DNA of 64,000 bases, taken from the NCBI GenBank assembly GCA_050255815.1, contig JBLMVJ010000035.1:10727-74726 (forward strand). The letters are read 5' to 3'. Below the pieces are notes generated by a model that was not told the origin of the DNA, searched no databases, and saw only the letters and a list, made by a program, of their open reading frames with translations. How positions within the stretch are numbered: position 1 is the first letter of the stretch; the number at the start of each line of letters is the position of its first letter. The DNA is from Candidatus Levyibacteriota bacterium. Lineage in GTDB: Bacteria; Patescibacteriota; Microgenomatia; Levybacterales; GWA1-39-11. The position numbers and the translations under genes were made by a program. This document shows, piece by piece, positions 1,091 to 48,526 of this stretch.

Positions 1091-1270
1091 CAGAATTGTT
1101 CCAAAAAAGTGAAAAAAAGAAAAACATTTCTTATAAAAGAATAAAATAATTTGTTAGAAGAGGGATTAAAAAAAGAAATTATGAGGCTAAATTTGACCAA
1201 TTGTTAGAAAAAGCCACAATAGTAGTTTTTATCCTTGACATTATACTTTTACACTGATAAATTTAGACAC

Positions 1271-3373
1271 ATGGGAAATAATTCAACCATTATTCTTCTT
1301 AAGAAAATATCTGTTTGGGTACTTTCTTTTGTACTATTCTTCTTCCCTCTTCTCTTTTTAGTAAACGCAACTGATCCATTCCTTTTGCCAAAACAGGTAT
1401 TCCTGGTTATGGCATCTGTAGTCCTGCTGATCCTTTGGAGCGTTATCATGGTCTTTGAAAAAAAGATTATGATCCGGACCAGTCCGTTTAATCTTCCGGC
1501 AGGACTCTTTACTTTAGCAGTACTTATTTCAGCATTCCTCTCCCGGAATATGTATGATTCACTTGCTCTTGCTATTCCGGTGTTGGCTTCTTTCATACTG
1601 TATTTTGTGGCACAAAACACCATATCAAATAAAAAGGATTTACTGTTTGTCTTATCTGCTCTTCTTTTGGGAGGAGCCGTGTCTTCCCTTATCTCAGTTT
1701 TGTACTACCTGAAGATTTACTTCCTTCCTATTCCGGCAATCCAAAGCCAGTACTTCACTACCTTTGGTTCTCCTATCCAGCACATTATTTATATAGTACC
1801 GCTTTTGATTGTTGCCGCCTACTTCCTGTCTAAAGAAGTGAGAGGGAGAAAACCTGAAGCAAACTACAATACTATATTATTTGGCGGACTTACCGGCACC
1901 CTTCTCATCTCTGCCGTCCTCTTAATAGTACAGGTAGTAACTGCACCACAAAAACCACTCTTACTGCCATACACATTTGGCTTCCAGATTGCTACCGCAG
2001 CTATTTCCCAGGACACCACACGCTTCTTAATTAGCCTGCCGTTTGGGTCCGGATTTGGCACATTCTTATCAGACTTTACCAGGTTTAAACTTCCTGATAT
2101 CAATAATGGCCAGCTTTGGGCTGCATCCTTTAGCACTTCTTCTTCTTTTGTCCTGGAGCTTTTAACCACCGTAGGAGTAGTAGGACTTTTAACCTACTTA
2201 TTTATGATTGCCAAGGTATTAAAGAATAGGACAAAAGACACCACCCCATTATTCTTTGCACTGTTAGTAGTGTTCTTAGTCTCATTCTTCCTGCCGCTTT
2301 CTATCATCTCCCTTACCCTTATCTTTATTTTAATGGCGCTGTTTACCAGCACTTTATTCCTGGACCACAGCAAAAATGTATATGATATAAGCCTTTCTAT
2401 AGTAGCTCTAAAACATGGCCTATTCTCTATAGAGGAAACGTCAGGCGCACCTAAGAAAGCTTCAGAATCTTCAAAGGTGCTTCCGATTATTGTAGCGCTG
2501 GTTATCATTCTGGTTGGCGGGTATACCGGGTATCTCTCATTCAAACTCTTGTCTGCAGACATGAAGATGGCAGACTCTTTGTCACAAAGCAAGAGGAACA
2601 ACGGCCAGGCTATTTATGACCTCCAGAGACAGGCGCTCATAGACTTCCCGTACCGCTCTGATTATTACAGGATCTTCTCCCAGATTAACCTGGCTCTTGC
2701 TAACTCTATAGCCGGTGCTGTCCCACAGGGATCTACCCCTTCCACTACGGCACAGGCAACTATTACGCAATTGCTGCAGCAAAGTATTGCAAACGGCAGG
2801 ACTGCAGTAGCCCTGGCTCCTATGAGCTCAGTAAACTGGGAAAACCTTTCCCAAATCTATAGGAGCTTAATAGGGGTAGGACAAAATGCGGGAGAATTTT
2901 CAGTGGCAACCATGAACCAGGCTATCATTTTAGATCCTTCCAACCCACTCCTGAGGGTAGAATTAGGGGGTATCTACTACCAGCTGCAGCAGTATGACGC
3001 AGCCCAAAACCAATTCCAGATTGCAATTAACCTGAAGCCTGACTTTGCAAATGCATACTACAACCTGGGCCATGCTCTTGAAGCAAAAGGAGATCTGAGA
3101 GGTGCAATAACCGCATACCAGGCAGCACAAAGCCTTACCACCAATGATAATGATAAAAAGAGGTTGGATTCTGAAATGGAAGTTATCCTGAAAAAAATTG
3201 GGACAGAGGTAAAACCGGGCACTCAGCCATCAGCAGCTGCTCCATCTGCAGACCAACCACCACTTGGAATAAGTACACCTTCAGCACAACTGCCTAGCCA
3301 AAAAGACCAGGTAAAATTACCTTCACCACCAACTGAAACTCAACCAACAGCCACACCTAAAACTACGAAATAA
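1271..3373 (+). CDS. Polytopic membrane protein with C-terminal TPR repeats and a Pro-rich tail; O-antigen ligase (Wzy_C)-like, paralog 1
   Basis: ORF 1235..3373; start moved to the ATG at 1271 downstream of a TTGACA(1224)/TAAATT promoter-like pair. About 10-12 hydrophobic helices over the first ~400 aa, then TPR-like 'AYYNLGHALEAKGDL', then a P/T/Q-rich C-terminus. The Wzy_C assignment is inferred from architecture only. Confidence 0.7.
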   Translation: MGNNSTIILLKKISVWVLSFVLFFFPLLFLVNATDPFLLPKQVFLVMASVVLLILWSVIMVFEKKIMIRTSPFNLPAGLFTLAVLISAFLSRNMYDSLALAIPVLASFILYFVAQNTISNKKDLLFVLSALLLGGAVSSLISVLYYLKIYFLPIPAIQSQYFTTFGSPIQHIIYIVPLLIVAAYFLSKEVRGRKPEANYNTILFGGLTGTLLISAVLLIVQVVTAPQKPLLLPYTFGFQIATAAISQDTTRFLISLPFGSGFGTFLSDFTRFKLPDINNGQLWAASFSTSSSFVLELLTTVGVVGLLTYLFMIAKVLKNRTKDTTPLFFALLVVFLVSFFLPLSIISLTLIFILMALFTSTLFLDHSKNVYDISLSIVALKHGLFSIEETSGAPKKASESSKVLPIIVALVIILVGGYTGYLSFKLLSADMKMADSLSQSKRNNGQAIYDLQRQALIDFPYRSDYYRIFSQINLALANSIAGAVPQGSTPSTTAQATITQLLQQSIANGRTAVALAPMSSVNWENLSQIYRSLIGVGQNAGEFSVATMNQAIILDPSNPLLRVELGGIYYQLQQYDAAQNQFQIAINLKPDFANAYYNLGHALEAKGDLRGAITAYQAAQSLTTNDNDKKRLDSEMEVILKKIGTEVKPGTQPSAAAPSADQPPLGISTPSAQLPSQKDQVKLPSPPTETQPTATPKTTK

Positions 3374-3375
3374 GT

Positions 3376-5523
3376 ATGGAAAGTAAAGATGTGCCGTCAA
3401 TAGTATCAAAGCTGCAGATAGGCGTGTTGTGCACCATGCTGGTATTATTCCCCTTAGCATTTATTCCTAACTCCACTGACTCATTTACCATGGGTAAGAG
3501 CCTAATCCTCATACTGGGGACTTCCCTTCTTATCCTGTTGTGGGCAATTGCATCTATATATAAGAAAGGCTTTGTCTATAAATCCAGCCCATTTAACCTT
3601 CCGGTTGCCCTTTTTGGCGTAGTGGTACTTATTTCCTCCCTGCTCTCCCGCAATATGTATGATTCTCTTGTTGCAGCTGTTCCCGTAGTCTTCTCTTGCG
3701 TATTGTACTTTACCATTTCTTATATGATAAGCAGCAGAAAAACACTTATTTTAGCTATTACCAGCCTTATTGCCGGCGGCGCACTGACTGCCCTTTTAAG
3801 TACCGCTTACTATCTGAAACTTTATTTCCTGCCTATTCCGGGTATTAATAACCAGTACTTTTCCCCGTTTGGGTCAGGCGTACAGGAAGCAATTTACCTG
3901 ATTGCCCTTCTCATGTTCCCGCTTTTCTCCCTATTAAGACAAACAAAGACCAGAAAGCTTACGGTTACGCAGGATTTCCTCATTGAAGCAGGTTTGGGAG
4001 GCGCACTTTTGATAGGGGTAATCTTTATTACCCTTTCCATCATTACTTCCCCAACCAAACCTATTATATTGCCATACACATATGGCTTGCAGATTGCAGC
4101 CGCTACTATTAGCCAGGATATCTCGCGCCTCTTTATCTCATTCCCATTTGGATCCGGCTTTGGCACGTTCTTAAATGACTTTGCCCGCTTCAGACTGCAG
4201 GAGCTGAACGCAAACACTACGTTTGCTACCGCCTACCCATCCTATTCATCATCTTTTGCCCTGGAGCTGATGACTACCACCGGCATCTTAGGCATCCTTT
4301 CTTACCTCTTTATAGTGTTTAAGGCCTTAAAAACCCGCATGAAAGACAGCAATCCATCTTACTTTGGCCTGGTTATCTTATTTATTGTCTCATTCTTCTT
4401 ACCGTTTGGCCTTCCAACTATTGCACTGGTCTTTATTCTTTTGGGAGTCTATTCATCATCCTTATTCCTGGCAAATGACAGGCGGGTACATAATACCAGC
4501 CTCTCACTGGTTGCCTTTGACCAGGGAATTATTTCTACAGAGGATGTGTTGAGGAATGAGCGGGTTAAGTCTGAGAGTATTATCCTGCCGGTTCTTATCA
4601 CTATCTTAGTGGTACTAATAGGAGGATTTGCTTCATTTATGATGGTACGCCTGGTAGATGCAGACACCAAAATGGTTTCCTCTTTGGTTGTACCTGCCGG
4701 TAAGAAGCTCACCATCCAGCAGCAATATGACTTGCAAAGAAATGCGGTAAATGAATTCCCTTATAAATCAGACTACCAGAGGACATTCTCCCAGCTTAAT
4801 ATGAACCTGGCTAACTCTATTGCTGCCAGCCTGCCAAAAGGCGCTACCCCATCAGCAGTTGTACAGCAAAGCGTCAACCAGCTCTTACAGCAATCAGTAA
4901 ATTCAGCCAGAAGCGCTGCTGATATAGCACCGCTTACTTCAACCAACTGGTCCAATCTGGCACAAATTTACCGGAACCTGATAGGCGTGGGCCAGGGAGC
5001 TGACCAGTTTGCCATTGCAGCCATGAACCAGGCAACACTGTTAGACCCAACCAATCCATTCTTAAGGCTGGACTACGGTGGTATTTATTACCAGTTAAGC
5101 CAGCTGGATGCAGCCCAAAACCAATTCCAGATTGCCATTAACCTGAAGCCTGACTTTGCTAATGCCTATTACAATCTGGGCCATGTGATAGAGTCCAAAG
5201 GAGACCTTTCTACCGCACTTTCTCTCTACCAGACTACCCTTTCCCTGGCCGGAAACAATCCAACAGATAAAAAGAAACTCAGTGATGAAATAGAAGCATT
5301 GAAGAAAAAGATTAATGAAACAGCAGCTACTCAACAGCAGCAGACACCGGTAAACCTGCAGACCAGCGCAGGCCAGCAGCAACCTATTGGCATTAACGCT
5401 CCTTCAGCTCAATTTCCAGCACCTAGCAGGCCGGTAAAACTTCCTCCACCTCCTGGTGCCAGCGCTTCTCCGGAACCGTCTCCTTCGGCTGCTCCCAGGC
5501 CTACGGCCACCCCCACACAATAA
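3376..5523 (+). CDS. Polytopic membrane protein with C-terminal TPR repeats; O-antigen ligase (Wzy_C)-like, paralog 2
   Basis: Starts 2 nt after the stop of the preceding gene. Collinear similarity to paralog 1 (e.g. 'NMYDSL', 'FGSGFGTFL', 'QNQFQIAINLKPDFANAYYNLGH'). Confidence 0.8.
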   Translation: MESKDVPSIVSKLQIGVLCTMLVLFPLAFIPNSTDSFTMGKSLILILGTSLLILLWAIASIYKKGFVYKSSPFNLPVALFGVVVLISSLLSRNMYDSLVAAVPVVFSCVLYFTISYMISSRKTLILAITSLIAGGALTALLSTAYYLKLYFLPIPGINNQYFSPFGSGVQEAIYLIALLMFPLFSLLRQTKTRKLTVTQDFLIEAGLGGALLIGVIFITLSIITSPTKPIILPYTYGLQIAAATISQDISRLFISFPFGSGFGTFLNDFARFRLQELNANTTFATAYPSYSSSFALELMTTTGILGILSYLFIVFKALKTRMKDSNPSYFGLVILFIVSFFLPFGLPTIALVFILLGVYSSSLFLANDRRVHNTSLSLVAFDQGIISTEDVLRNERVKSESIILPVLITILVVLIGGFASFMMVRLVDADTKMVSSLVVPAGKKLTIQQQYDLQRNAVNEFPYKSDYQRTFSQLNMNLANSIAASLPKGATPSAVVQQSVNQLLQQSVNSARSAADIAPLTSTNWSNLAQIYRNLIGVGQGADQFAIAAMNQATLLDPTNPFLRLDYGGIYYQLSQLDAAQNQFQIAINLKPDFANAYYNLGHVIESKGDLSTALSLYQTTLSLAGNNPTDKKKLSDEIEALKKKINETAATQQQQTPVNLQTSAGQQQPIGINAPSAQFPAPSRPVKLPPPPGASASPEPSPSAAPRPTATPTQ

Positions 5524-5575
5524 GGGTTTAGGGTTTAGTTCACACAAAGAATCGAGCAATCAAAATAAACTCCCA

Positions 5576-5626
5576 CCTTAATTTCATCTCTTGAATATGA
5601 AACCATGGAGAAACGAATGAGTGAAC
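5576..5626 (+). repeat. Dispersed ~55-bp repeat element, copy A (CCTTAATTTCATCTCTTGAATATGAAACCATGGAGAAACGAATGAGTGAAC)
   Basis: Similar to copies at 22700-22752 and 44778-44834. Lies ~50 nt after the stop of 3376..5523. Confidence 0.6.
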
Positions 5627-5827
5627 CACAGGACCCCAAATCAGACAGCTTCAAGCTTTTAGATTCATCCCAAGGGTAATAATTTTTAACTATACCCTAT
5701 ACCCTAAACGCTATTTCTCGAGCTCCTTTGAAATAAAAATATCAATCAAGTCCTTGAGCGAGAAAAATACCGGGAGTCTTTGGCAAGCAAGCAGGTCTAC
5801 GAGTGCGCCAAGAGTTAACGGTACACC

Positions 5828-10344: not shown

Positions 10345-10557
10345 TTGAAGACTAGACCGCCGCCGAAGGCACTTTCCTTGGGAAGCCCCAAAAAGGCAAG
10401 CCCAAAAAGCAAGGTAGTATCCCGCAAACGCGTAAGCGTGTTCGGAACTTGCTTTCTAATGCAGAAATGCACGGGAAGAAATTCCTGGATCCTTACCGGC
10501 CCTAGTTCATCCGAATTCTGGCTTTGCAAGCCAACAGCTCATGGAGAGATGCCATGA
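10345..10557 (+). CDS. Possible small, highly basic protein (70 aa, TTG start) in the island
   Basis: AGGAGG at 10333-10338, 6 nt before the TTG. Low-complexity, K/R/S/P-rich product; may be non-coding. Confidence 0.2.
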   Translation: MKTRPPPKALSLGSPKKASPKSKVVSRKRVSVFGTCFLMQKCTGRNSWILTGPSSSEFWLCKPTAHGEMP

Positions 10558-11990
10558 ATTGGACTGCGCTACTAGCGTGGGTGATGGACCCAGTCCGCAC
10601 CCTTGACGAACTTCGGCAGGCGCACCTTGCCCTGATCGGCCATCCCAACATGGGGAACCGCGTTCAGGTGCGTGCGCGCGTGAGGAACTACATCAATCTG
10701 ATGATCGCCACCCAAGGTGGAGGAGCTCCTGCTCCTTGGCACCCTGGCATGGGCGCTCCTGTGGTTCCTCCAACGCCAACACCTGGCCCTGCGCCCGTTC
10801 CTGGTCCTGGCCCTGCGCCCGTTCCTGGTCCTGGCCCTGCGCCCATCGTCCCGCTCGTTCCGGTTGTCGGCTATCGCCCACGCATGTGGACGTACCGCCG
10901 AATGATACGGAGAGCGCTAAACGAGGGCAACACCGCCTGGATGGATACCGAACTCACGGCATGGGGAGACCCTCCGGGAGTCGGCACTCCAGCACAGCGT
11001 GCGTACCGGCTCGAGAACTTCTCGAGGTCACGGCACGGGTGGAACCGCATCGGGCATGATATCCCGGAGCTTGTTCCGCCTGGCGCACCGGCACCGGCAC
11101 CCCGCCGACAGGTGGACTACGGTCCCCTTGGGTGGATCGCAGGTGCTCTGCTGATCGCAGCCGGCGCAGCCGTACTGTTCTTCGCCTTGATTCTGCCTCT
11201 CTCCAAGTGGGGATGGGACCAGAGCTTCGGCGACGACACGGCAGTGCAGCAGCCCGGCAACCAGCCTGGTAACCAGCCCGGCGGCAACAACGGCAACGGT
11301 AGCGGCAACGCGAACCAGCCTGGCAACAACGGCAACGGTAGCGGCAACGCGAACCAGCCCGGCAACCAGCCCGGCAATAGCGGCGTCATCAAGAACTTGG
11401 CCGACGGCCAGTTCCCCTGGACACCGCCCACACCGGGTACCGACCTTGGGAACGACAAGCAGTTCACCAGCACCATCATCGAGCAGGCCAAGCAGGGAGA
11501 CTGGATTCACAGGCTCTTCAACCCTGGCTTGTTCAACGCAGCCAATAACTACGGCGGAGCCGATTCTTGGGCTATTAGCCTGAACGTCGGTCCGAACGCT
11601 GGTGGCAGCTGGAAGGGCGAGGGAGTCTCGGGACGCTTCGTCTACCGTGCTGTGCAGAATCAGGTGGGTTGGTGCCTTGGCATCCTCACCTCGAAGACGT
11701 GGAACAACATCGACCTGAAGAGTCAACTCCTCAGCGGTTCAGACCCCAGTTTGCCGATCGGATTCAACGTCCGCATCGAACCAGGGTCTACCGTGATGGT
11801 GAAGACGAACTCAGGCGAGATCAAGTCCGGCGTCACAAGCGACATGGGTGATATCCAAGTCGTTCTGCCAGACAGCGGGCTGACCACCATCTGCACTGCG
11901 TTCAGCACTGCAGCACCTACGGGTGAAAGCCAGCTTTGGGTGGGACCTCGGGACCGCTCCAAGGACATCAACACGATCGACGCGCGGTAA
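10554..11990 (+). CDS. Hypothetical single-pass membrane protein (478 aa) with Pro-rich and QPGN/NGNGSGNA repeat linkers; high-GC
   Basis: ORF 10524..11990; likely start is the ATG at 10554, preceded by GGAGAG. Central TM helix 'GPLGWIAGALLIAAGAAVLFFALILPL'. Tandem DNA repeats at 10786-10857 and 11281-11358. Confidence 0.6.
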   Translation: MNWTALLAWVMDPVRTLDELRQAHLALIGHPNMGNRVQVRARVRNYINLMIATQGGGAPAPWHPGMGAPVVPPTPTPGPAPVPGPGPAPVPGPGPAPIVPLVPVVGYRPRMWTYRRMIRRALNEGNTAWMDTELTAWGDPPGVGTPAQRAYRLENFSRSRHGWNRIGHDIPELVPPGAPAPAPRRQVDYGPLGWIAGALLIAAGAAVLFFALILPLSKWGWDQSFGDDTAVQQPGNQPGNQPGGNNGNGSGNANQPGNNGNGSGNANQPGNQPGNSGVIKNLADGQFPWTPPTPGTDLGNDKQFTSTIIEQAKQGDWIHRLFNPGLFNAANNYGGADSWAISLNVGPNAGGSWKGEGVSGRFVYRAVQNQVGWCLGILTSKTWNNIDLKSQLLSGSDPSLPIGFNVRIEPGSTVMVKTNSGEIKSGVTSDMGDIQVVLPDSGLTTICTAFSTAAPTGESQLWVGPRDRSKDINTIDAR

Positions 11991-15961: not shown

Positions 15962-17170
15962 ATGAGAATTCTTTTAATCACCCCATATTTCTATCCCCAT
16001 AAAGGGGGAAGCCAGCAGTATGCGCTGGAGCTCTATAAAACCATCATGAAGCAGAATAAAGATATTCAAGTTGATGTCCTCACCTATAACACAGACCAGT
16101 CAAAAAGTGTGGAAGAATATGAAGGGTTTACCATCTACCGTGTGCCTTGTGTCCAACTCCTGAAGGGACAATTTGCTATTCCTCATTATTGGGAGCTGAG
16201 AAAAACACTGAATAAACTATTCAGGGAAAACCGCTATACGTTTGTGAATAGCCATACGCGGTTTTTTGAAAGTTCCTGGTGGGCGCCGTATGTTGCTTCA
16301 CATTTCCATACCAAATCTATCCTGACTGACCATTGCGCAGCACATCCCACCCATAAAACTAAACTGGTTACCGGCGTGTCATACGTAATAGATAAATTCA
16401 TAGCGCCCCTGTTTTTGCAAAAATATGACTATATTACCGTGACTAATAAAGCCACCCAGGATTTCTTAAGCTCACTTATTTCAAAAGAGTCAGAGGTTAT
16501 TTATGGCGGCGTAGATACAAAACTCTTTAAACCCAGGACAAACAGGAGCAAAGAAAGAAAAATTTTAGGGATCAAAAAAAGATTTTCAAAGAATGATGTG
16601 GTGGTAGCATTTGTAGGCCGCATGATCTATTCCAAGGGTCCGCAAATACTTTTGGAAGCAGCCAAAAAAATTACAAAAAAATACCCGCGGGCATACTTTA
16701 TTTTTGGAGGAAACGGTAGCCTGTACCCTGAGCTTTCTGCCTTCCAAAATGACCATATTTTCTTTACCGGAGAGCTCACAAAAGAAGAAATATCTGACCT
16801 GTTAGCCAAGTCCGATGTCCTGGTTCATCCTTCTTTACACCATGAAGGCTTTCCAAATGTTATTTTAGAAGCAGGAGCAGCAGGCTGTGCAGTTATTGCA
16901 ACAAATATGGGCGGAACGTATGAAATTATTACCCCCAGAACCGGGATCATGGTAAAACCAACAGTTTCAGCAGTAAGCTCAAAACTGGAGCTCCTAATAA
17001 AAAATGGCTTGCAAAGACGTAAATTGGGAAACAGCCTGCATAAATGGGTAGCTGATAATTACGACTGGAAAAGGATTGCGAAGGTATACCAAAAATCCAT
17101 GCAGGAAAAGATCCGGGAAAATACGTTACTGTTCCCAACCATGCGGATGCGCTCTATACCACGTCACTAA
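15962..17170 (+). CDS. Glycosyltransferase family 1 (GT4-like)
   Basis: C-terminal 'EGFPNVILEAGAAGCAVIATNMGG' sugar-nucleotide binding motif. Confidence 0.9.
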   Translation: MRILLITPYFYPHKGGSQQYALELYKTIMKQNKDIQVDVLTYNTDQSKSVEEYEGFTIYRVPCVQLLKGQFAIPHYWELRKTLNKLFRENRYTFVNSHTRFFESSWWAPYVASHFHTKSILTDHCAAHPTHKTKLVTGVSYVIDKFIAPLFLQKYDYITVTNKATQDFLSSLISKESEVIYGGVDTKLFKPRTNRSKERKILGIKKRFSKNDVVVAFVGRMIYSKGPQILLEAAKKITKKYPRAYFIFGGNGSLYPELSAFQNDHIFFTGELTKEEISDLLAKSDVLVHPSLHHEGFPNVILEAGAAGCAVIATNMGGTYEIITPRTGIMVKPTVSAVSSKLELLIKNGLQRRKLGNSLHKWVADNYDWKRIAKVYQKSMQEKIRENTLLFPTMRMRSIPRH

Positions 17171-18133
17171 CGAGTCAATACTCTGCTCCAGCGTATGTTC
17201 CGGGCTCCATTTTAAAAGCTCTTTTGCACGCGTTATATCTGCAACCATTTTGGCATATTCACCCTGGCGCGTTTGTGATTTTTCCAAAGGCAACTGAGCA
17301 CCTGTTTTTTGCTCTACAGCTTTTATAATTTCTAGAACCGAGTTTCCGGATTCTGTCCCTATGTTCATAATTTCACTATTGCCACCATTTAAAAGATACT
17401 CAAGAGCGAGAATATGGGCATTGTTTAGGTCTACTACGTTCACATAATCCCGGATAGGTGTCTTGTCCGGTGTGTCTACCTCAGGACAGGTCAGATAGAA
17501 CGGCTCTATCCCTAAAGCACCGCGTACGGCATTCTGCATGAGGTGTACAGAAGGTTTTTTGCTGTCACCTATCATTCCGTCATCTGTTGCCCCGCAGACG
17601 TTAAAATACCGCAAAATAACGTAATTTAGGCCCTTTAATTTTCCGTACCACTCAATCATTTTCTCTGTCATACGTTTTGACTCCCCATACGGATTACTGG
17701 GGTTGGTGGGATGTTTCTCATCTATGGGAACGTACTGGGCTTCCCCATACACGGCGCAGGTGGAGGAAAAAATAATGTTTTTAATGTTACGGGAAAGCAT
17801 GGCTGCCAGAAGGACCTGGGCGGACGTAGTGTTGTTCCCAAAATATTTCTCCGGGCTTTGCATAGATTCATTTACTGAGCAATTGGCTGCATAATGGATA
17901 ACTGCCTCTATGTCCGGATTTGAATCAAGCACGTGTTCTATGTCTTTTTTGATTTCACCTTCATAGATATTCAGGTTATCGCCAAATTTTTCTTGTAATG
18001 CCTGCATTGCACCATGGAATCCCGTGGAAAAGTTATCCAGGGCCACCACCTGGTAGCCTTTTTGGAGGAATAAGTAGGCGGCTACTGACCCTATATACCC
18101 TGCTGCACCGGTAATTAATATTTTCTTTGCCAT
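17126..18133 (-). CDS. galE: UDP-glucose 4-epimerase
   Basis: N-terminal Rossmann motif 'ILITGAAGYIGS', SDR catalytic YxxxK, and a length typical of GalE. Confidence 0.85.
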   Translation of the reverse strand: MAKKILITGAAGYIGSVAAYLFLQKGYQVVALDNFSTGFHGAMQALQEKFGDNLNIYEGEIKKDIEHVLDSNPDIEAVIHYAANCSVNESMQSPEKYFGNNTTSAQVLLAAMLSRNIKNIIFSSTCAVYGEAQYVPIDEKHPTNPSNPYGESKRMTEKMIEWYGKLKGLNYVILRYFNVCGATDDGMIGDSKKPSVHLMQNAVRGALGIEPFYLTCPEVDTPDKTPIRDYVNVVDLNNAHILALEYLLNGGNSEIMNIGTESGNSVLEIIKAVEQKTGAQLPLEKSQTRQGEYAKMVADITRAKELLKWSPEHTLEQSIDSLVTWYRAHPHGWEQ

Positions 18134-20039: not shown

Positions 20040-21434
20040 TTAGGAAAGTTTGCTAACCAGAGGTAATAATCCCTTTGCAGTTTCCATGGTCACGGCTTTA
20101 AACCCAAACTTCTTTGCCTCCTTGATACGTTTTTCCAGGTTCATAACCTTCTTAATCTCTCCCAACAGGCCTACCTCTGCTATGGCAGCAGTTTTAGCAA
20201 GCGATTTTCCTTTCAGGGAGCTTATGATAGACAGGCACACTGCCAGGTCTGAAGCCGGCTCTGATATCTTAAAGCCACCTACTACATTTACGTACACATC
20301 ATACTTATCCAGCGGCAGCTTTCCATGTTTCTGCAGGATAGCCAGCAAGAGTTCCAGGCGTTTCTCTGAAACACCGTTTGCAACGCGGCGGGGAAAAGCC
20401 AGGCTGGAATGGATTACTAATGCTTGTATCTCTACTAAAATAGGTCTGCTCCCCTCCATGATAACTGCTACACAAGAACCGGGGGAAGCAACAGAGTCAC
20501 CCATGAACAATTCAGACAAGTCTGTAATTTGTTTAAGGCCATATTCTTCCATACCAAATATTCCCACCTCTGAGGTATCCCCAAACCTGTTTTTAAATGC
20601 CCGTAGAATACGCACTCCGGTCATTTTCTCTCCTTCCAGGTATAACACGGTATCAACCATATGGGACAACATCATAGGGCCTGCCACCATCCCTTCCTTA
20701 GTCACATGGCCTATGAGAAAAACCGGGGTGTGAGTAGTCTTTGCAAAAGCTACAAGCCTACCCGTAGCATGGCGCACCTGGGGAATAGAACCTGCATAAC
20801 CGGGGACGTCCCCACTCTCCATAGTCTGGATTGAGTCAATGATCAGCAGGTCAAAGTGTTCTTGCTGTGCCTGCTCCAGGGCTAAATCTATGTCTGAGGT
20901 AGCTAAGATAAATAAATTTTCCGAGTTAGTTTTCCTGTCTTTTTGCAGCCTTTGTGCCCGGAGAGTAACTTGCGCTTCAGATTCTTCACCGGTAACATAC
21001 AGTATCTTGCGGGTGGCGGGTAGCGAGTGGCTTGTAGTTTTCTCACCACCTGCTACGTGCCCTTTGCTATCTGCCAGGTTAAGCGCCGTCTGTAAAAGTA
21101 TTGTTGACTTACCAACCCCCGGATCTCCTGAAAGTAAGACTACGGAACCGGGGACAATCCCGGCTCTGGCCTCCTCCCCCAAAACTCTATCAAACTCTGA
21201 GAACCCCGTAGAAAACCGCTCTACCAAATTTACTTTCACATCACTTATCCTGGTCGGCTTTGCTGAGGAAACGAATTTGGAACTGTGACTCTTTGCCCCT
21301 CTGCCCCTCTGACTCTCAGAAGTCTTAAACTCTTTCATGGTATTCCATTCCCCACACTCCGGGCATTTTCCGTACCATTTTTGCGAGTCGTATCCGCAAC
21401 TACTGCAGACGAATGAAATATTAGTTTTAGACAT
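20040..21434 (-). CDS. radA: DNA repair protein RadA (Sms)
   Basis: N-terminal zinc finger 'CSSCGYDSQKWYGKCPECGEW', Walker A 'GDPGVGKST', 'KNRFG' motif, and a Lon-like C-terminal domain. Confidence 0.95.
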   Translation of the reverse strand: MSKTNISFVCSSCGYDSQKWYGKCPECGEWNTMKEFKTSESQRGRGAKSHSSKFVSSAKPTRISDVKVNLVERFSTGFSEFDRVLGEEARAGIVPGSVVLLSGDPGVGKSTILLQTALNLADSKGHVAGGEKTTSHSLPATRKILYVTGEESEAQVTLRAQRLQKDRKTNSENLFILATSDIDLALEQAQQEHFDLLIIDSIQTMESGDVPGYAGSIPQVRHATGRLVAFAKTTHTPVFLIGHVTKEGMVAGPMMLSHMVDTVLYLEGEKMTGVRILRAFKNRFGDTSEVGIFGMEEYGLKQITDLSELFMGDSVASPGSCVAVIMEGSRPILVEIQALVIHSSLAFPRRVANGVSEKRLELLLAILQKHGKLPLDKYDVYVNVVGGFKISEPASDLAVCLSIISSLKGKSLAKTAAIAEVGLLGEIKKVMNLEKRIKEAKKFGFKAVTMETAKGLLPLVSKLS

Positions 21435-21449
21435 ATTTCCGAGGGAATT

Positions 21450-21505
21450 TAGAGTCTAGAATTCAGATTTCAGAATTAAATTTTGAATTCTAAATTTTGA
21501 ATTCT
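21450..21505. repeat. AT-rich palindromic repeats of the TTCAGAATT / GAATTCTAAATT family in the radA-rpsA intergenic region
   Basis: 'aattttgaattctaa' occurs twice in tandem. Related motifs at 34487-34555 and 42783-42845. Confidence 0.6.
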
Positions 21506-21510
21506 AAATT

Positions 21511-22596
21511 CTACCGGTATCCTACGAAGGTCTTCGTAACAATAGGAGATAATACAACTACTCTCTTTTTGGTATCAACTTCTACCACTTCTGCACTTAC
21601 AGACTGTCCTGGTTCATAGGTGGTACCTGCAGGAATCTTGCTGGAAGAAATAAATCCATTTACACCGTCTCCCAGTTTAACAGTCACACCCTTTGACCTT
21701 ACATCTGAAACGGTCCCGGTTACTTTCTCTTCCGGCTTAAACTTCTCTGCTGCTTTAGCAAATGAGTCGTTGAGCAGAGATTTTACTGAAAGGTTTACCC
21801 TCCTGTTCTCTGCGTCTACGCTTAACACTACCGCCTCAAATGCATCACCTTTTTTATATAAATCATTTAAGTTCTCTACCCTCTCATGGGAAATCTCAGA
21901 AATATGGATAAAACCTTCGGTAAGTTTTCCTTCTGTTGCCTGCGTAGTCACATACACACCATATGATGCAACCTGGGAAACAGTTACCGGCACTTTTTTA
22001 TCTTTGGGGAAAAGTTTGCGCAAAATCTCTGCATCAGTTACATATGAAACAGCTTTCTGGGAAAAAATAGCCCTCTTTTTTGTTTTGTCAGACTCAATAA
22101 TTTTTACTTCTATAGTTTTGCCGCTTAGGTTCTCTCCGTCAAGCACCTGTGAGTTAGGAAGAAAACCGCGGATGCCATTTTCTGCTTCAACAAAAAATCC
22201 GCCGCGGGTAGGTTCTAAAACTTTCACGCTTACGGTCAGGTTATCTGCCAGTGCCTTGTCTAAATTAGAGAAAATGAGGTTGCCCAGCGTACGGCGCAGA
22301 GAAACAACAGGAAAACCCTCTTCTGCTTCAGGAGAAATAACAACAGCTTTTACTTTTTCTCCTACTTTCAGCATGGAAAGCAGGTGGTTGAGGTTATTTT
22401 TATCAACTTCCAGAACTAATGCATCTGATTTTGCACCAATATCTAAAAGGATTTCTTGGGGAGTGAGTTTTTTAACGGTTCCTTCTACTTCCTCACCTTT
22501 TTTAAACACCTTAAAACTTGAGGATGACCTGGCCATGAGCTCAGCCATGGAAGAAGCATGTCCTGGATTAGATGCGTTTTTGCTTGAAGTTGGCAC
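21511..22596 (-). CDS. rpsA: 30S ribosomal protein S1 (short, four S1 domains)
   Basis: Repeated S1-domain pattern ('GEEVEGTVKKL...', 'GTVSDVRSKGVTVKLGDGVNGFI'). Confidence 0.85.
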   Translation of the reverse strand: MPTSSKNASNPGHASSMAELMARSSSSFKVFKKGEEVEGTVKKLTPQEILLDIGAKSDALVLEVDKNNLNHLLSMLKVGEKVKAVVISPEAEEGFPVVSLRRTLGNLIFSNLDKALADNLTVSVKVLEPTRGGFFVEAENGIRGFLPNSQVLDGENLSGKTIEVKIIESDKTKKRAIFSQKAVSYVTDAEILRKLFPKDKKVPVTVSQVASYGVYVTTQATEGKLTEGFIHISEISHERVENLNDLYKKGDAFEAVVLSVDAENRRVNLSVKSLLNDSFAKAAEKFKPEEKVTGTVSDVRSKGVTVKLGDGVNGFISSSKIPAGTTYEPGQSVSAEVVEVDTKKRVVVLSPIVTKTFVGYR

Positions 22597-22699
22597 TTAG
22601 TAATTCCCCTTTCATAATTAGAATGATACATTCTACCACAGGAAGAACCTATCCGCAAGGAAATTCCAAAGCTCTTATTTCCCTTCTGATCGATCCCTT

Positions 22700-22752
22700 C
22701 CAATTCCATCACTTGAAACAGAACCCATGAGAAACGAGTGAACGAGCGCCCG
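22700..22752 (+). repeat. Dispersed ~55-bp repeat element, copy B
   Basis: CCAATTCCATCACTTGAAACAGAACCCATGAGAAACGAGTGAACGAGCGCCCG aligns with copies A and C. Confidence 0.55.
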
Positions 22753-22881
22753 GAAAGAACACACATGAGGGACTGTTGCGAAGCGGTTCTTTCAGTGAGT
22801 GAACGAGTTTTGAATGGATGAATGGTTCATCGTGATGGCAGTTTTTGCTCAACTTTTTGCTGCCAAAAAGTTGAAAGAAAC

Positions 22882-23343
22882 CTAAATGAACCTAAAAAGA
22901 ATCACGTAGAGGATAAAAACTGTGGCCACTTGTGTCACTATGCCCCACGGCTGGTCCAGGCGGGAATTAATAAGATGCTGCACTTTATACATCCATTTGG
23001 ACCATTGGGAGAATACATTATTAGTCCGCAAAATAAGGTACGGTGCCGTAATCCAGTCAGGCAGCTGGGCGGCAATAACAGAAGCAAACAAAAGTATACT
23101 GTCTGTCCCCCCTAAAACCCCATGGTACAGTACATAAGCTGACAGAAAGCTAATCCCCACGTCTATACCGGATTCTATGACAAGCGCCTGCTTAGTCTTA
23201 TCCCGGTGGTGGAGTCCGGTATCCCAGTGGGGAATTAAATCTAGCGCAAAATGGGAAACAAAAGAGGCTGGGATTGCTACATATGGGTTGTGGAATTTTG
23301 CGGCAATAAGTGCTGCAACTAACGCGTGTCCGGTGGCTGTCAT
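22882..23343 (-). CDS. DUF457/YdjM-like membrane-bound metal-dependent hydrolase family protein
   Basis: Multiple TM segments and conserved His residues ('HFALDLIPHWD'). Weak, family-level call only. Confidence 0.45.
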   Translation of the reverse strand: MTATGHALVAALIAAKFHNPYVAIPASFVSHFALDLIPHWDTGLHHRDKTKQALVIESGIDVGISFLSAYVLYHGVLGGTDSILLFASVIAAQLPDWITAPYLILRTNNVFSQWSKWMYKVQHLINSRLDQPWGIVTQVATVFILYVILFRFI

Positions 23344-27983: not shown

Positions 27984-28093
27984 ACCAAGAAATTCAGTAG
28001 AAATAGATAGAAATTCATAGAAACTAAATTGTATTTATTGCTGCACTTCAGTTTCTACCAATTTCAACTAATAGCTACCATTTTCTATGCCTT

Positions 28094-28895: not shown

Positions 28896-29681
28896 ATGCA
28901 TTACCTAAAGATCTTAAAAGCGCTGATAGTCATTAACACCGCATACGCGTTAGAGTACAAGGCGCATTTTGTGGCCCAGGTTTTTGCAAGCCTGGCCTGG
29001 GGCGTATTTTCCGTGGTCAACATGATCCTTTTGACGTACCGCGTCCACTCTGCTTTTGGCTGGAGCAGGAATGAGCTCATCCTTCTTTCCGTTATGGTTA
29101 ATGTAGTCTATGGCATCCACCGTATGTTGTTTGATGTAAACTTCTGGAGATTCTCCCGGATTATCCATTATGGAGAAATGGACATGGTGCTGTTAAAGCC
29201 CGTGGACTCCCAGTTCCAAATGAGCATGTGGATCATAGATATTAGCGGTATCTTCAGATTTTTAGTTGCCCTAGCGCTCACCTTTATCCTGGTTTTTGCC
29301 ATGCACTTTCCTATTTCTCTGACAAGTGTGTTGATTGCCACTATTTTAAGCCTGGCCGGTGTGGTCCTTCTCTATGCTTTCACCTATATCTTCCTAACCC
29401 TCACCATCTGGTTCTCTAACCTCTCTAACCTGATGGGACTGGTGAATAATATCCTTTCTATGTCCCGGTATCCAAAAGAAATGTATGAAGGATTAGGCAC
29501 CTACTTTTTCTTTTTTCTCTTGCCTTTAATTGTTATAATAAGCACTCCTACAAAAGCTCTCATCCAAAAGGGGAACCTGTTAGATAGTCTGCTTTTAGTA
29601 CTCTTTACTATCCTATTTTTTGCAATCTCAAGGGTGTTCTGGAAATTCGCCCTGCGGTTCTATGTCAGTGCTTCAGGATAA
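28896..29681 (+). CDS. ABC-2 family transporter permease, paralog 2
   Basis: 'YGEMDMVLLKPVDSQF' motif. Polytopic. Confidence 0.7.
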   Translation: MHYLKILKALIVINTAYALEYKAHFVAQVFASLAWGVFSVVNMILLTYRVHSAFGWSRNELILLSVMVNVVYGIHRMLFDVNFWRFSRIIHYGEMDMVLLKPVDSQFQMSMWIIDISGIFRFLVALALTFILVFAMHFPISLTSVLIATILSLAGVVLLYAFTYIFLTLTIWFSNLSNLMGLVNNILSMSRYPKEMYEGLGTYFFFFLLPLIVIISTPTKALIQKGNLLDSLLLVLFTILFFAISRVFWKFALRFYVSASG

Positions 29682-29684
29682 ACA

Positions 29685-29758
29685 GGAAATTAATAGATAT
29701 TCATAGAAATTAAGAAATTGATTGTAATTACACAATTTAGTTTCCATGAATTTCGCGA
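29685..29758. repeat. 74-bp palindromic intergenic element, copy 1 (GGAAATTAATAGATATTCATAGAAATTAAGAAATTGATTGTAATTACACAATTTAGTTTCCATGAATTTCGCGA)
   Basis: About 95% identical to 48527-48599. Terminal inverted repeat GGAAATTAA...TTAATTTCC. Confidence 0.85.
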
Positions 29759-33719: not shown

Positions 33720-34000
33720 TCAAGAGCAAAACCGGTAAGATCCGAATCTACTCGAATAGTTTGGGGTAACTTCTAGGCTACCCCATTCTTCTCGAATATT
33801 TCGAATTAACATTAACAAACACTAGCGCATTCGAATTGATTCGATTTAAATTCGAACCATTCGAGAATGATTTCTTAGAATCCACGCTATTTGGATCGAC
33901 CTATTAGTACAACTTCGCTGAAACAGTTACCTGTCTTACACGTGTTGCCTATCAACCTGATGGTCTCTCAGGGGTCTAAAAGAGATCTTATCTTAGGGTG

Positions 34001-34033
<33 letters not shown>

Positions 34034-34268
34034 CATGGAAATCTAGCTACCCAGCAGTGCACTTGTAAGTACAACTGGCACACCAGGGATTTCCTCACCC
34101 CAGTCCTCTCGTACTAGGGGCGACTCCCTTCAAATCTCAAACGGTTGTCCTGGATAGAGTCCGAACTGTCTTACGACGTTCTTAACCCAGCTCGCGTACC
34201 TTTTTAACTGGCGAACAGCCAGACGCTTGGGAGCTTCTCCACCCCCGCGCTAAGATGAGCCGACATCG

Positions 34269-34699
34269 CTGTCAATCCAATCAGTAATTAAGAAAGACTT
34301 AAAAACTTAAAACTGATGGTGATACTCTTGTTACCAAGAGCCTCTGACTATACCTTCATCCGCCAACTGGCGGAGCTAGTCGTATGATACAGATTATAAA
34401 TTTCTCTTTATGAGATGAATCCATATCTCACCCTCTCACCTATGCTGGTGAGGGGTTCAGTCGATAGGGTCCAAAAGAAATTTAAAATTCAGAAGTTAAA
34501 ATTCAGAATTAAATTCTTAATTCTGAAATCTGAATTCTTAACTCTATTTGAACCTCGGTATTACCCTCTTGTGTTCAGAAAGTAGGGTTTCACCGATTTG
34601 GACTAGTTATTTAAATTATTAGTACCTTGTTTTTTGACTCAAATACTAATAAATACAGGCAAGAGTATTACTACTCAGGCGCCCCGATATTTTCATATA
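34269..34699 (-). other. Putative group I intron (~431 nt, no ORF) in 23S domain V at the GGCACCU|CGAUGUCGGCUC junction (E. coli ~2500 region)
   Basis: Exon sequences that are contiguous in E. coli are separated here. The 5' exon ends in U and the insertion ends in G. Confidence 0.6.
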
Positions 34700-34742
34700 A
34701 GGTGCCAAACCGCATCGTCGCTGTGGACGCTTGGATGCGATC

Positions 34743-34775
<33 letters not shown>

Positions 34776-35229
34776 AAGCTACGTCCCAACCACTAAGGAA
34801 CGCAGGATCACTAACACCTGCTTTCGCACCTGCTCGACTTGTAGGTCTCGCAGTCAAGCTGGCTTGTGCGTTTGCACAATACGCTCCGATTTCCGTCCGG
34901 AGTTAGCCAACCTTTGTACGCCTCCGTTGCACTTTAGGAGGCAACCTCCCCAGTTAAACTGCCCACCAGACACTGTCTTTTAGCCGTATTTTTATGCGGC
35001 ATTAAAGTAATGCTCACTCATCTTAAAGAGAGGTATTTCATTGATGACCGAAGTCTCCCTCCTATACTAAACAGTTAAAATAAGCTTGCAAATGTCAAGC
35101 TACAGTAAAGCTCCCGGGGTCTTTTTGTCCTAGGACAACCAGGCCGCGTCTTCACAGCCATCTCAATTTCGCCGTGTAAATGTTCAAGACAGTTACTCAG
35201 TCGTTCTACCTTTCGTGCGGGTCGGAACT

Positions 35230-35548
35230 CCATTGTTTTAATGTTCCAACATGGAACCTCACAGTCGCCTGTGAGATCGGACTATATCTTTCCCTTACCA
35301 AATTGGTGAGGGATCTAGCGTCTAGTCTCTGAGGGTTTTCCGATAAATCGGAATCTTCCCTGCTGATTGGCTCCACCAAGCAGATTTTTACTCTTACGAG
35401 TACTGTTGGATACTGAGCTGTTCCAGCAAATAGCTAGATTTTACACTCATTTAGGTTAACGATTGTGTTCTTACGTGACTGTTTTGCTTGTTCCTGATGT
35501 GTATCCCGATTAGATCGGGACTCGGGCAAGTTGATTTGACCCAAACCA
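35230..35548 (-). other. Putative group I intron (~319 nt, no ORF) in 23S at GUCGGGU|AGUUCCGACC (E. coli ~1951 site)
   Basis: Exons flanking the insertion are contiguous in E. coli. The 5' exon ends in U and the insertion ends in G. Confidence 0.6.
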
Positions 35549-37359
35549 ACCCGACAAGGAACTTCGCTACCATAGAACAGTTATAGTTACTGCTGCCGTT
35601 CACCGGAGCTTTAGAAAGCGGCTCCACCTTGCGGTTTCACCACCCACTATTGACTTACCGGCACTGGGCAGGTGTCAGCCCCTATACGTTACCTTTCGGT
35701 TTTGCAGGGACCTGTGTTTTAGATAAACAGTCGCTAAGTAATCTTTTGCTTAACCTGGATGTTACTCCAGGCAGGGCATCTCCCATAGGTTACGCCCAGC
35801 TTTTGTTGCCGAGTTCCTTGAACATTTGTCTCACGGTCGCCTTAGTCTACTCGACCAATCCACCTGTGTCGGTTATGCGGTACGGCAAAATATAGCACTC
35901 CTCACGAATCTTTTCCTGAAGACTGAAACTTACGATCCTCACCCTACTTTCTTGCGATTTCAGATTTGCATTCGCCACTTAATTAAACACTTTGACGGAT
36001 TTGCCCATCAAAACTATCTTATGGCTTGGACCCTGTTTACAGGGCGATCCTTTCCACTCTTGTCCATCCTTGAGTAATAACGCACTATACTCTGTAGCAG
36101 AATATTAACTGCTTGTCCATCCGGCTACCCCGCGCTTTATGACGGGCCACCGTTAGGAGCCGACTAACGCTGCGCTGACTTACATTGCGCAGCAAACCTT
36201 GGATTTTCGGCGGACGCCGTTCTCAGGCGTCATTCGCTACTCATGCCGGCATTCTCACTTGTAAACGCTCCACCATACCTTACAGTACAGCTTCGCTGCA
36301 TTTACGACGCTCCCCTACCACTTGCTCCGATAAATCGGAGTCAAATCTCCATCGTCGGTATTAAGCTTAATCCTCGATCATTTCCGGCGCCATTCTCCAA
36401 TGTCGACTAGTGAGCTGTTACGCTTTCTTTAAAGGATGGCTGCTTCTGAGCCAACCTCCTAGCTGTCTATGGAAAATGACTTCCTTATCAACTTAGCTTA
36501 AATTTAGAGACCTTAGATGGGAGTCTGGGCTGTTTCCCTTTAGACCCACGAGCTTAGCCCCGCAAGTCTGACTCTCTATTAAGTTTTTACGGTATTCGGA
36601 GTTTGATTGATCCTGAAAAGTTGCCTCTCCAGAGACCATTCAGTGCTCTACCCCCGTAAAAACATACAAAAGGCTATACCAAAATATATTTCGGGGAGAA
36701 CCAGCTATCTCCAGGTTCGTTTAGTATGTCACCCCTTACCACAAGTCGTCTCAGATCATTGCTGCGATCACGAGTTCGGGCCTTCCTCATCCTTTCGAAC
36801 AAGTTCACCCTGCTCATGGTAAGCTCACCTGGTTTCGGGTCTTTTGCAATGCGCATTTAGGTATCCCAGTTAGAGATCGCTTTCACTATGCCTCCCCCCT
36901 CACCTTTCCAACGAAAATTCCAACCTTTGTTTTAAATCGAGCTTGTTTCGATAATATTTCAAAGTGGTAATCCTCATTAGAATGGTGAGGGGTTAGACTG
37001 CGCAATACAAAAACTCACCGGCTCATTCTTCAATAGGCACGACGTTATACCCTTGCGGGCACTTCGTCTGCTTGTTAGCTAATAGTTTCAGTAACTCTTT
37101 CATTCCCCTCCCGGGGTGCTTTTCACCTTTCCCTCGCGGTACTAGTTCACTATCGGTAGATGTTGATATTTAGCTTTGGAGCGTGGTCGCCCCGGCTTCC
37201 CACAGGGTTTAATCGTACCCCATGGTACTCAGGAACAGGCAAGAAGTGAAAATCATTTCAAATACGGGACTATCACCCTCTTTGGTCTCTTTTTCCAAAA
37301 CGTTCTTCTATGATTTCCATTTGTGACTTCTTTTGCATTTAAGCAAGCCGTCCTACAAC

Positions 37360-37660
37360 CCCCCTCACCTTTTTATCACTAACCTTTTTAAAAGTTCTTG
37401 CCAAGCTTTTGCGCGCTTCTTAAGCGCCTGCTCTCTTCTAAAAGCTAATTTATAAGAAGTATATGCTTCATAATAAATAAGCTCCCATGGCAAAAACTTT
37501 TTAGTATATATAGACTTTCCTTTATTATGGTCCGTAAATCGAGTTTTAAGATCTTTTGTTGAACCAATATAAAACTGGTCGAACTTTACACTCTTAAGAA
37601 TATACGTGTAGAACATAAGTCTATTATAGTTATTTAAGTTAGGAACAAAAAGGTGAGGGG
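37360..37660 (-). mobile_element. Hairpin-bounded intervening sequence in 23S domain I carrying a GIY-YIG nuclease ORF; ~15-bp terminal inverted repeats CCCCCTCACCTTTTT / AAAAAGGTGAGGGG
   Basis: Replaces the variable region after AGCGAACG (E. coli ~270-350). Flanking rRNA blocks identified on both sides. Confidence 0.6.
37365..37616 (-). CDS. Small GIY-YIG nuclease superfamily protein (COG2827-like, 83 aa) encoded inside the 23S rRNA gene
   Basis: 'YTYILKS...FYIGSTKDLKTRFTDHNKGK...PWELIYYEAY...RREQALKK' matches the small URI-domain endonuclease family. Same strand as the rRNA. Confidence 0.75.
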   Translation of the reverse strand: MFYTYILKSVKFDQFYIGSTKDLKTRFTDHNKGKSIYTKKFLPWELIYYEAYTSYKLAFRREQALKKRAKAWQELLKRLVIKR

Positions 37661-38222
37661 TTTGAGCTGTTCCGCGTTCGCTCGCCGCTACTGACGGAAT
37701 CTCTGTGATTTCTTTTCCTCGGACTACTTAGATGTTTCAGTTGGTCCGGTATCCCGCCGACTACTAATATATTAATCTTGCGACTAATAACTTCATAGCA
37801 GGCTCCCAGTTAAACTGGGGGGTTTCCCCATTCGGACACCACCGGATCATAATGTCTTCGGCCATTCCCCGGTGATTTTCGCGAGCCAGATGCGTCCTTC
37901 TTCGGTCAACACCTCCTAGGCATCCACTATTAGCATGAATCAAATAGCGTAGATTCTAAAAAACCAATTCATTAAAAACCATGCCTCGGCTTGAAACATG
38001 GAAAATCCGCCACCCGGCGGATTTTTTTAATCCTCCGTCCCGATTAGATCGGGACTTCGGCCTAGTTGTTTGTTTGTAATTCTTCCAATTATTAATGAGC
38101 AAAACGCTTTTTGCGTTGCCCTCGGATGTAATCCGAGGCCATATCTCTCCTGTACTCGTTTCTCGCCGGGAAGTATATTGCCCTTCCACCAGCGAGGAAC
38201 CAATACAAGAAAACTAAAAAAG

Positions 38223-38295
38223 TGGACCCAAGGAGATTTGAACTCCTGACCTCGTCATTGCAAATGACGCGCTCTACCAGCTAAGCTATGGGCCC
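38223..38295 (-). tRNA. tRNA-Ala (anticodon TGC)
   Basis: Reverse complement reads GGGCCCATAGCTTAGCTGGTAGAGCGCGTCATTTGCAATGACGAGGTCAGGAGTTCAAATCTCCTTGGGTCCA. Anticodon loop TTTGCAA. No encoded CCA. Confidence 0.9.
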
Positions 38296-44736: not shown

Positions 44737-44777
44737 GTGCTATTCTCTTCAACTCTGCGAAATCATATAAACAACTT

Positions 44778-44834
44778 CCTTAATTTCATCACTTGGAATA
44801 TAAAACCATGGAGGAATGAATGAGTGAGCGCCCG
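44778..44834 (+). repeat. Dispersed ~55-bp repeat element, copy C
   Basis: CCTTAATTTCATCACTTGGAATATAAAACCATGGAGGAATGAATGAGTGAGCGCCCG. ~90% identical to copy A over the first 45 nt. Confidence 0.6.
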
Positions 44835-44841
44835 AAAAAAA

Positions 44842-44884
44842 TCACAGACCCGCACGTGCGATTGGGTCTGTGACTTCTTATTTT
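44842..44884. terminator. Bidirectional intrinsic terminator: TCACAGACCC-gcacgtgcgatt-GGGTCTGTGA with T-rich tracts on both strands
   Basis: 10-bp perfect stem, followed by CTTCTTATTTT on the plus strand and preceded by AAAAAAA (T7 on the minus strand). Sits between convergent genes. Confidence 0.65.
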
Positions 44885-48485: not shown

Positions 48486-48526
48486 ATCTTAAGTTAACCA
48501 CAGGAAAATTGACTAGTCAATGAAAA

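Follow-up and report, generated by a model that had tools for sequence, protein, structure and literature searches.

Three copies of a short intergenic repeat with the anatomy of a translation-initiation region in DNA gained by a Levybacteria lineage

The window analysed here, a 64-kb stretch (G+C ~43%) from a MAG of Candidatus Levyibacteriota (Levybacteria, candidate phyla radiation), carries three dispersed copies of a short intergenic repeat, which lie where a preliminary description of the sequence had placed them, all on the plus strand and in one orientation (c1, c2 and c3; Table 1). What the copies have in common is a translation-initiation region and not a peptide, and each of them sits in DNA that syntenic relatives lack. 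We tentatively favour the view that the copies arose recently, within this lineage alone, as pasted-in fragments of one source resembling the 5' end of a gene or mobile element, and that they are mostly neutral. The repeat is an undescribed, lineage-restricted member of the short interspersed intergenic repeats, and it does not qualify as a MITE, a REP unit, an Rfam RNA or a conserved small-protein gene.

Table 1. Positions of the repeat copies, their small ORFs and neighbouring features in the 64-kb window.
Feature	Position	Strand	Details
Copy c1	5558..5626	+	SD-like GGAG 5607-5610, ATG 5617; nhmmer E 1.1e-18
Copy c2, most diverged	22697..22763	+	SD reduced to GAGA 22729-22732, start GTG 22738; nhmmer E 2.2e-18
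Copy c3, most complete	44761..44846	+	GGAGG 44810-44814, ATG 44820; nhmmer E 5.8e-21
c1 small ORF	5617..5679	+	MSEPQDPKSDSFKLLDSSQG, 20 codons (last 20 of ORF 5605-5679); first 3 codons common to other copies
c2 small ORF	22738..22821	+	(V/M)NERPERTHMRDCCEAVLSVSERVLNG, 27 codons
c3 small ORF	44820..44873	+	MSERPKKITDPHVRLGL, 17 codons; crosses terminator hairpin, stop in right arm
c1 spacer	5524..5827		304 nt vs 92 nt in syntenic L013/L014 (79%), with no similarity to the core there
c2 gained DNA	22659..22881		153-aa gene stop to rpsA -35 box: 223 nt vs 12-13 nt in relatives
c3 gained DNA	44737..44839		GT2 stop to ancestral hairpin: 103 nt vs 15 nt in L008
Ancestral two-way terminator hairpin	44842..44873		TCACAGACCC...GGGTCTGTGA, T-run on - strand; outside repeat
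rpsA promoter	22630..22658	-	TTGCGG, 17 nt, TGgTAGAAT; kept in relatives, outside repeat; 85% over 62 nt to L001
Inverted degenerate rpsA promoter copy and second GAGTGAACGAG	22776..22807	+	Within c2 spacer; 22637-22658 / 22776-22797, 77%
18-nt inverted repeat AGGGTTTAGGGTTTAGTT / AACTATACCCTATACCCT	5523..5705		89% complementary; brackets c1 and its small ORF; absent from c2 and c3

The preliminary description had given the repeat a length of ~55 bp; the repeat itself stands but its size does not, for blastn places the beginning of c1 and c3 ~18 nt further upstream and gives a unit of ~70 nt. c2 has diverged clearly more than the consensus first proposed implies. In blastn comparisons c1 (5558-5624) matches c3 (44761-44827) over 68 nt at 84% identity (E 7e-12), and c2 (22697-22763) matches c3 (44775-44846) over 72 nt at 76% identity (E 9e-7). 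An nhmmer profile built from the three copies aligns all of them above background, with the E-values listed in Table 1, and finds no further copy within the 64-kb window, where the next match has an E of 2.7. The 16-mer AATTYCATCWCTTGRA, with up to 2 mismatches allowed, occurs in the window at 3 sites, exactly those of c1, c2 and c3, against 0.55 expected. In order, the core consists of AATCA.ATAAAC (c1 and c3 only), a variable pentamer, CCTTAATTTCATC, w, CTTGrA, AATAT, r, AAACCATGGAG, rAAyGA and ATG AGT GAr, and its conserved blocks of 10-13 nt are CCTTAATTTCATC, AAACCATGGAG and GAATGAGTGA.

The edges of the copies are staggered rather than fixed, c1 and c2 being overlapping sub-segments of c3 in the blastn alignments. 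Beyond the core, on either side, similarity between the three spacers does not exceed that of shuffled sequence (p 0.69 for the downstream flanks of c1 and c3, p 0.48-0.91 for the upstream flanks), and no collinear 7-mer outside the core is common to the copies; the only exception is that c2 and c3 stay marginally similar for another 18 nt (p ~0.05 against shuffles). The match between c2 and c3 may also enter ~16 nt of sequence that the relative L008 marks as ancestral flank at the c3 locus.

Other repeats occur in the window. A second dispersed intergenic repeat (GGAAATTAATAGATATTCATAGAAATTAAGAAATTGATTGTAATT...) is found at 29678-29742 and 48520-48584, with 91% identity over 65 nt and a shorter relative at 28000-28027. 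An AT-rich palindromic family (GAATTCAGAATTAAATTTTGAATTCT-like) has copies at 21429-21526, 34476-34545 and 42773-42842 with 64-77% identity between them, one inside the 23S rRNA region and another overlapping the start of the gene at 41854-42789. The 23S rRNA gene itself (33883-37949, minus strand) is 4067 nt long against a 2925-nt model, with a group I intron match at 35258-35526 and evidently further insertions; no 16S gene adjoins it, and upstream lie a tRNA (38223-38295) and then a protein gene. The ORF at 10524-11990 has a G+C of 0.60 against 0.43 for the genome and contains tandem AACCAGCCYGGC and 39-nt repeats at 11247-11375; these would code for a low-complexity protein rich in Asn, Gln, Pro and Gly or be a sign of foreign DNA.

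The conserved unit runs from an AU-rich stretch through GGAG(G) and 5-6 nt to an ATG or GTG followed by 3-5 common codons, M/V-S/N-E-(R-P), with R-P following in c2 and c3. The spacing between the SD-like motif and the start codon is 6 nt in c1 (GGAG, ATG) and 5 nt in both c3 (GGAGG, ATG) and c2 (GAGA, GTG). It had been noted earlier that the reading frames of the copies are not conserved, which is true from the first ATG, that in CCATGG, but not from the second start, which is in the same register in all three copies. Nucleotide conservation in the nhmmer alignment is strongest upstream of the start codon and not inside the ORF, and the decay of c2 falls on the translation signals, with GGAGG changed to GAGA and ATG to GTG. 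The conserved content is therefore a translation-initiation region and not a peptide. Such a start is not the local habit: most genes of the window lack an SD motif, and only 6-7 nt separate their ATG from an extended -10 box, TGnTAnAAT, a pattern that suggests widespread leaderless mRNAs in this Levybacteria genome. Since most of the genes look leaderless, a strong GGAGG followed by ATG is not a typical gene start here. Gene starts with TGnTAnAAT and no SD include those of 17126-18133, 22882-23343, 57530-58387, 60198-61142 and 61268-63682.

Comparison with relatives sets the copies in recently acquired surroundings. At the syntenic sites the spacers are much shorter (Table 1) and hold no trace of the repeat, so all three copies lie in DNA gained in this lineage, and presence in the window against absence from relatives is seen at 3/3 sites. 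The short spacer at rpsA is found in L001 and L002 (88% S1 identity), in L003 and in L004-L007, and the relatives at the GT2 locus are L008 and L009 (86% identity). For c1 we used L013 and L014 and left out L012, the closest M23 relative (90%), because its synteny is broken and its neighbouring gene is not the TPR protein. None of the 27 loci compared contains core-like sequence, and in the orthologous spacers the core aligns nowhere better than shuffles, apart from the ancestral c3 flank common with L008. The hairpin in that flank is conserved in L008, with 91% identity over 44 nt (44831-44873 in the window), and there only 15 nt separate it from the GT2 stop; c3 was inserted between the GT2 stop codon and this pre-existing hairpin. 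The gained DNA exceeds the core by 20-35 nt on the left and by much more on the right, and is otherwise unique to each site.

Searches outside the window, which covered genomes of 185,579 species, JGI metagenome contigs, IMG/VR, phages and plasmids (collections among which the window's own genome is not included), found no homologue. Exact-pattern scans for the core returned nothing from genome contigs (one genome per species, 185,579 species) or metagenome contigs, and looser sub-patterns gave 2, 3, 7 and 1 matches, about the number expected by chance, in unrelated taxa, limited to the pattern itself and with unlike flanks. In blastn comparisons run in distant mode, c3 matched phage and plasmid records over just 20-30 nt, at chance level. 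A literature search on candidate phyla radiation bacteria that covered repeats, leaderless translation and the use of SD motifs turned up nothing relevant.

Two of the copies had been described as lying ~40-50 nt downstream of membrane or GT genes and one as lying upstream of rpsA, and this is what we find. c1 is 52 nt past the stop of a 715-aa TPR membrane protein and c3 41 nt past that of GT2, so that both sit between convergent genes, directly after the stops of plus-strand cell-envelope genes (a multi-pass TPR protein and a GT2 glycosyltransferase), while c2 sits between two minus-strand genes, 103 nt upstream of the GTG of rpsA, which is on the opposite strand, and beyond the rpsA promoter. 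Each of the three cores points at the 3' end of a minus-strand gene 118-201 nt away, a coincidence of common orientation and facing gene ends that is not significant with n=3 (chance p ~0.1). The gene before c1 is one of two tandem paralogues (1235-3373 and 3376-5523) with ~72% nucleotide identity, which encode multi-pass membrane proteins of ~710 aa with C-terminal TPR repeats; the pair is also present in the relative L013. Telomere-like GGGTTTAGGGTTTAG lies at 5523-5540, with an imperfect inverted copy at 5688-5705 and a spacing of 147 nt, around c1.

The c2 spacer is a patchwork of local duplications, which include an inverted copy of the rpsA promoter and a duplicated 11-mer. The latter accounts for part of an earlier observation, namely that a related motif recurs: GTGAACGAG indeed occurs at 1050, 22738 and 22799 (3 matches against 0.14 expected), and the matches at 22738 and 22799 belong to the 11-mer GAGTGAACGAG, present twice in this spacer, while the match at 1050 is not significant alone and belongs with a separate 18-nt direct repeat. 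This direct repeat, GTGAACTAACGAAGTTAG, is found at 1033-1050 and 1073-1090, with a small hairpin in each unit and the first unit overlapping the stop of the ORF at 28-1041. The occurrence of GTGAACGAG noted earlier at 1044 falls between the two units.

What leads us to favour copied fragments is that boundaries are staggered, that the SD motif and start codon of c2 have decayed, that the spacers are patchworks, and that neither structure nor promoter nor conserved peptide was found. A single source would have supplied the AU-rich leader, the SD-like GGAG(G), the start codon and the first 3-5 codons, and its fragments would have entered intergenic spacers together with unrelated filler DNA, probably by templated or non-homologous insertion or by insertion of an element that has since eroded. 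The staggered edges, together with a c2/c3 match that may reach the ancestral c3 flank, fit a c3 locus that served as template better than a fixed unit that moved by transposition. No dedicated function of the repeat family would be required; c1 and c3, in the 3' untranslated regions of the upstream plus-strand genes, could start translation of unrelated peptides of 17-20 codons, and c2 is already in decay. Templated filler-DNA insertions and template-switch duplications offer a parallel for the staggered boundaries, for direct and inverted nearby duplications within one spacer and for the lack of element ends; unlike them, the same source segment is reused here at least 2 times, and the mechanism is deduced from the DNA sequence only. 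To our knowledge, such a mechanism is undocumented in candidate phyla radiation bacteria. Solo ends of insertion sequences and pseudogene fragments of gene starts are also comparable, with a leader of ~57 nt, a ribosome-binding site, a start and a few codons after which homology stops, and with a place in lineage-specific insertions; unlike those relics, all copies are cut within ~20 nt of one another, which random deletion would not give, and no parent element or gene was found.

Several observations weigh against the fragment reading. No parent sequence is known, a search for a parent gene or full-length element (in the own genome, across 64 kb of one MAG) having found none. All copies have one orientation, and each faces the end of a convergent minus-strand gene. 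The same ~70 nt would have been used in at least 2 independent insertions, which is unexpected for random templated insertion and would point to an abundant or mobile source or to selection. Additionally, the sharp fall from 84% identity to background at the edges of the core might mark constraint on the core and not the points where copying stopped. A strong GGAGG with an ATG is also atypical of gene starts in this mostly leaderless genome.

A first alternative, which we consider unlikely, is that the copies are sibling regulatory RNAs or 3'-UTR RNA elements, in which the ~70 nt would serve as a conserved seed or for binding, each copy having a 3' part of its own after it. Read from the plus strand, such elements would belong to the 3' UTRs of two mRNAs, those for the TPR membrane protein and for GT2; on the minus strand, an anti-SD-like CUCAUUCNUUYCUCC would be followed by an AU/GU hairpin and then by a U-rich tail. 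All copies are intergenic, in one orientation and with sharp core boundaries, and 3/3 are downstream of minus-strand genes, which is in keeping with this reading. Sibling small-RNA families such as Qrr, OmrA/B, LhrC and the csRNAs are likewise intergenic paralogues with a conserved 5' part and divergent 3' parts; unlike them, the repeat has no promoter, common terminator or conserved fold, its conserved part resembles a plus-strand mRNA start site, and it is known here as sequence alone.

For the small RNA suggested in the preliminary description we found no support. At the gathering threshold, Rfam matches in the whole window were confined to 23S, a group I intron, 5S and one tRNA, and permissive scans of the three regions (E up to 5) gave only irrelevant sub-threshold matches. 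RNAalifold finds 4 pairs at -0.65 kcal/mol on the plus strand. On the minus strand it finds a 15-pair AU/GU hairpin (TTTCAT...ATGAAA; consensus -6.4 kcal/mol), in which three G-U pairs correspond to A-C mismatches on the plus strand and one pair is compensatory, a covariation check that with three sequences carries no statistical power. This hairpin is weak, with non-significant z-scores of -0.7, -1.5 and -0.1, and is missing from the minimum-energy fold of c3; the U-rich stretch just 3' of it is present in c1 and c3 only. The cores fold at -5 to -15 kcal/mol with z from +0.6 to -1.5 on either strand. The hairpin after c3 is strong (z -3.3 on the plus strand and -5.6 on the minus strand), but it is ancestral and older than the repeat, so that larger folds are significant only for c3 because of this terminator, and on the minus strand c3 lies beyond it. 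No terminator-like site was scored in the three regions, the main stem on the minus strand having at most 1 G-C pair. A promoter reading of the core was rejected, as no -35/-10 pair is common to the copies on either strand and the core lacks TGnTAnAAT; a consistent promoter for an RNA is thus missing on both strands.

Doubtful, too, is a second alternative, that the copies are transposable-element fragments or a non-autonomous derivative (MITE-like or the solo end of an insertion sequence) that spreads by transposition. Every copy is in DNA missing from relatives, and in c3 the left edge lies ~57 nt before the start codon, a distance typical of an insertion-sequence left end that bears the transposase ribosome-binding site. 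The lineage gain agrees with the miniature mobile element proposed in the preliminary description, but the terminal inverted repeats, target duplications and conserved ends of such an element are absent. Inverted repeats do bracket c1 (18 nt) and c2 (22 nt, 22637-22658/22776-22797), but they differ between the copies, the left arm at c2 is merely the rpsA promoter, and in the three spacers only such copy-private repeats were found, with none around c3. The core has no terminal inverted repeats of its own, no target-site duplication and no conserved second end, its boundaries being staggered and its flanks like shuffles, and the gained DNA extends past both edges of the core, as given above. 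Pfam annotation of the eight flanking genes scanned identified no transposase, and the sequence collections listed above, from 185,579 species genomes to plasmids, gave no homologue.

Established families of short repeats allow this to be put more precisely. With MITEs, the Correia/NEMIS elements of Neisseria, RUP of Streptococcus pneumoniae and ERIC, the repeat shares a short length (~70-150 nt in those families), an intergenic position, several diverged copies, frequent co-transcription in untranslated regions and presence or absence between close relatives; unlike them, its core lacks terminal inverted repeats, a target-site duplication and a conserved second end, three copies are known, and the gained DNA is larger than the common core and otherwise site-unique. 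REP/BIME elements are similar in being dispersed and lineage-specific, at gene 3' ends and between convergent genes, but the core forms neither an imperfect palindrome nor a stable stem-loop, its hairpin being weak and non-significant, and no REP-associated transposase is seen. Integrative-element att repeats do not fit either, since the intervals between the copies hold rpsA, a radA-like gene, 23S/5S rRNA and other housekeeping genes. A template/variable repeat of a diversity-generating retroelement was rejected because the differences between copies are not adenine-specific and the copies are not in coding regions.

We regard it as distinctly improbable that the core is a functional module actively spreading in one Levybacteria lineage, as sibling small RNAs or as a portable translation-start cassette.

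It is very unlikely that the copies are genuine small-protein genes, that is, genes of paralogous peptides of 17-27 residues that share the N-terminus MSE(R)P, each gene having a ribosome-binding site of its own. All copies keep the SD-like motif, its spacing, the start and the first 3-5 codons in one register, and c1 and c3 would be co-transcribed with the genes upstream. The peptides have no residues in common past positions 3-5, beyond which the ORFs (MSEPQDPKSDSFKLLDSSQG, VNERPERTHMRDCCEAVLSVSERVLNG and MSERPKKITDPHVRLGL) are unrelated, and no frame or peptide is conserved across the whole ORF, whose length differs from copy to copy; conservation peaks upstream of the start, c2 has a weakened SD motif and a GTG, and the ORF of c3 merely crosses a pre-existing terminator. 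We thus concur with the earlier judgement that the repeat is not a peptide gene, since on both strands the ORFs running across it agree neither in frame nor in length nor in sequence. Nor are the three peptides short, hydrophobic and membrane-spanning as in type I toxins: they are hydrophilic and charged, with no recognisable motif. Minus-strand coding was also rejected: the ORFs of c2 and c3 end at the same TGA with vaguely similar tails (...SLIHSSMVLYSK and ...SLVSHGFCFK), but indels shift the frame and c1 reads through. At c2 only, a 23-codon plus-strand ORF (22814-22885) encodes a hydrophobic peptide with a basic tail, MDEWFIVMAVFAQLFAAKKLKET, that resembles a type I toxin; the tail of the c2 small ORF overlaps with this ORF, as does an 11-bp palindrome.

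Finally, a candidate DNA-level protein-binding site (an operator, recombination or nucleoid-protein site) or an antisense promoter directed into convergent gene 3' ends would agree with the single orientation, with the convergent gene end that each copy faces and with the conserved blocks of 10-13 nt, but is highly improbable given that the core lacks the TGnTAnAAT box, the promoter type of most genes here, that the TTTCAT/ATGAAA half-palindrome is intact only in c1, that the copies are accompanied by no gene for a recombinase or regulator, and that the housekeeping genes between them (rpsA, the radA-like gene, rRNA) speak against att sites of an island. Readings as parS-like, DnaA-box-like or att sites were rejected, the similarity being by eye only and not conserved between copies.

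As it stands, with three members in one MAG and no functional sign, the repeat is mainly a matter for annotation and a strain marker. It also bears on how these genomes change. Candidate phyla radiation genomes are small, compact and repeat-poor, and three gains of one repeat in 64 kb, after divergence from relatives that retain 86-90% protein identity, therefore point to ongoing small-scale DNA gain in a genome of this kind. Were the core a translation-start cassette, new small ORFs would arise from it in the 3' UTRs of genes for the cell envelope, amid mostly leaderless translation, and for candidate phyla radiation bacteria a spreading module of this kind would be a new type of mobile regulatory unit, and a tiny one. 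If the copies are expressed, they would give rare access to regulation by small RNAs or small peptides in an uncultivated lineage.
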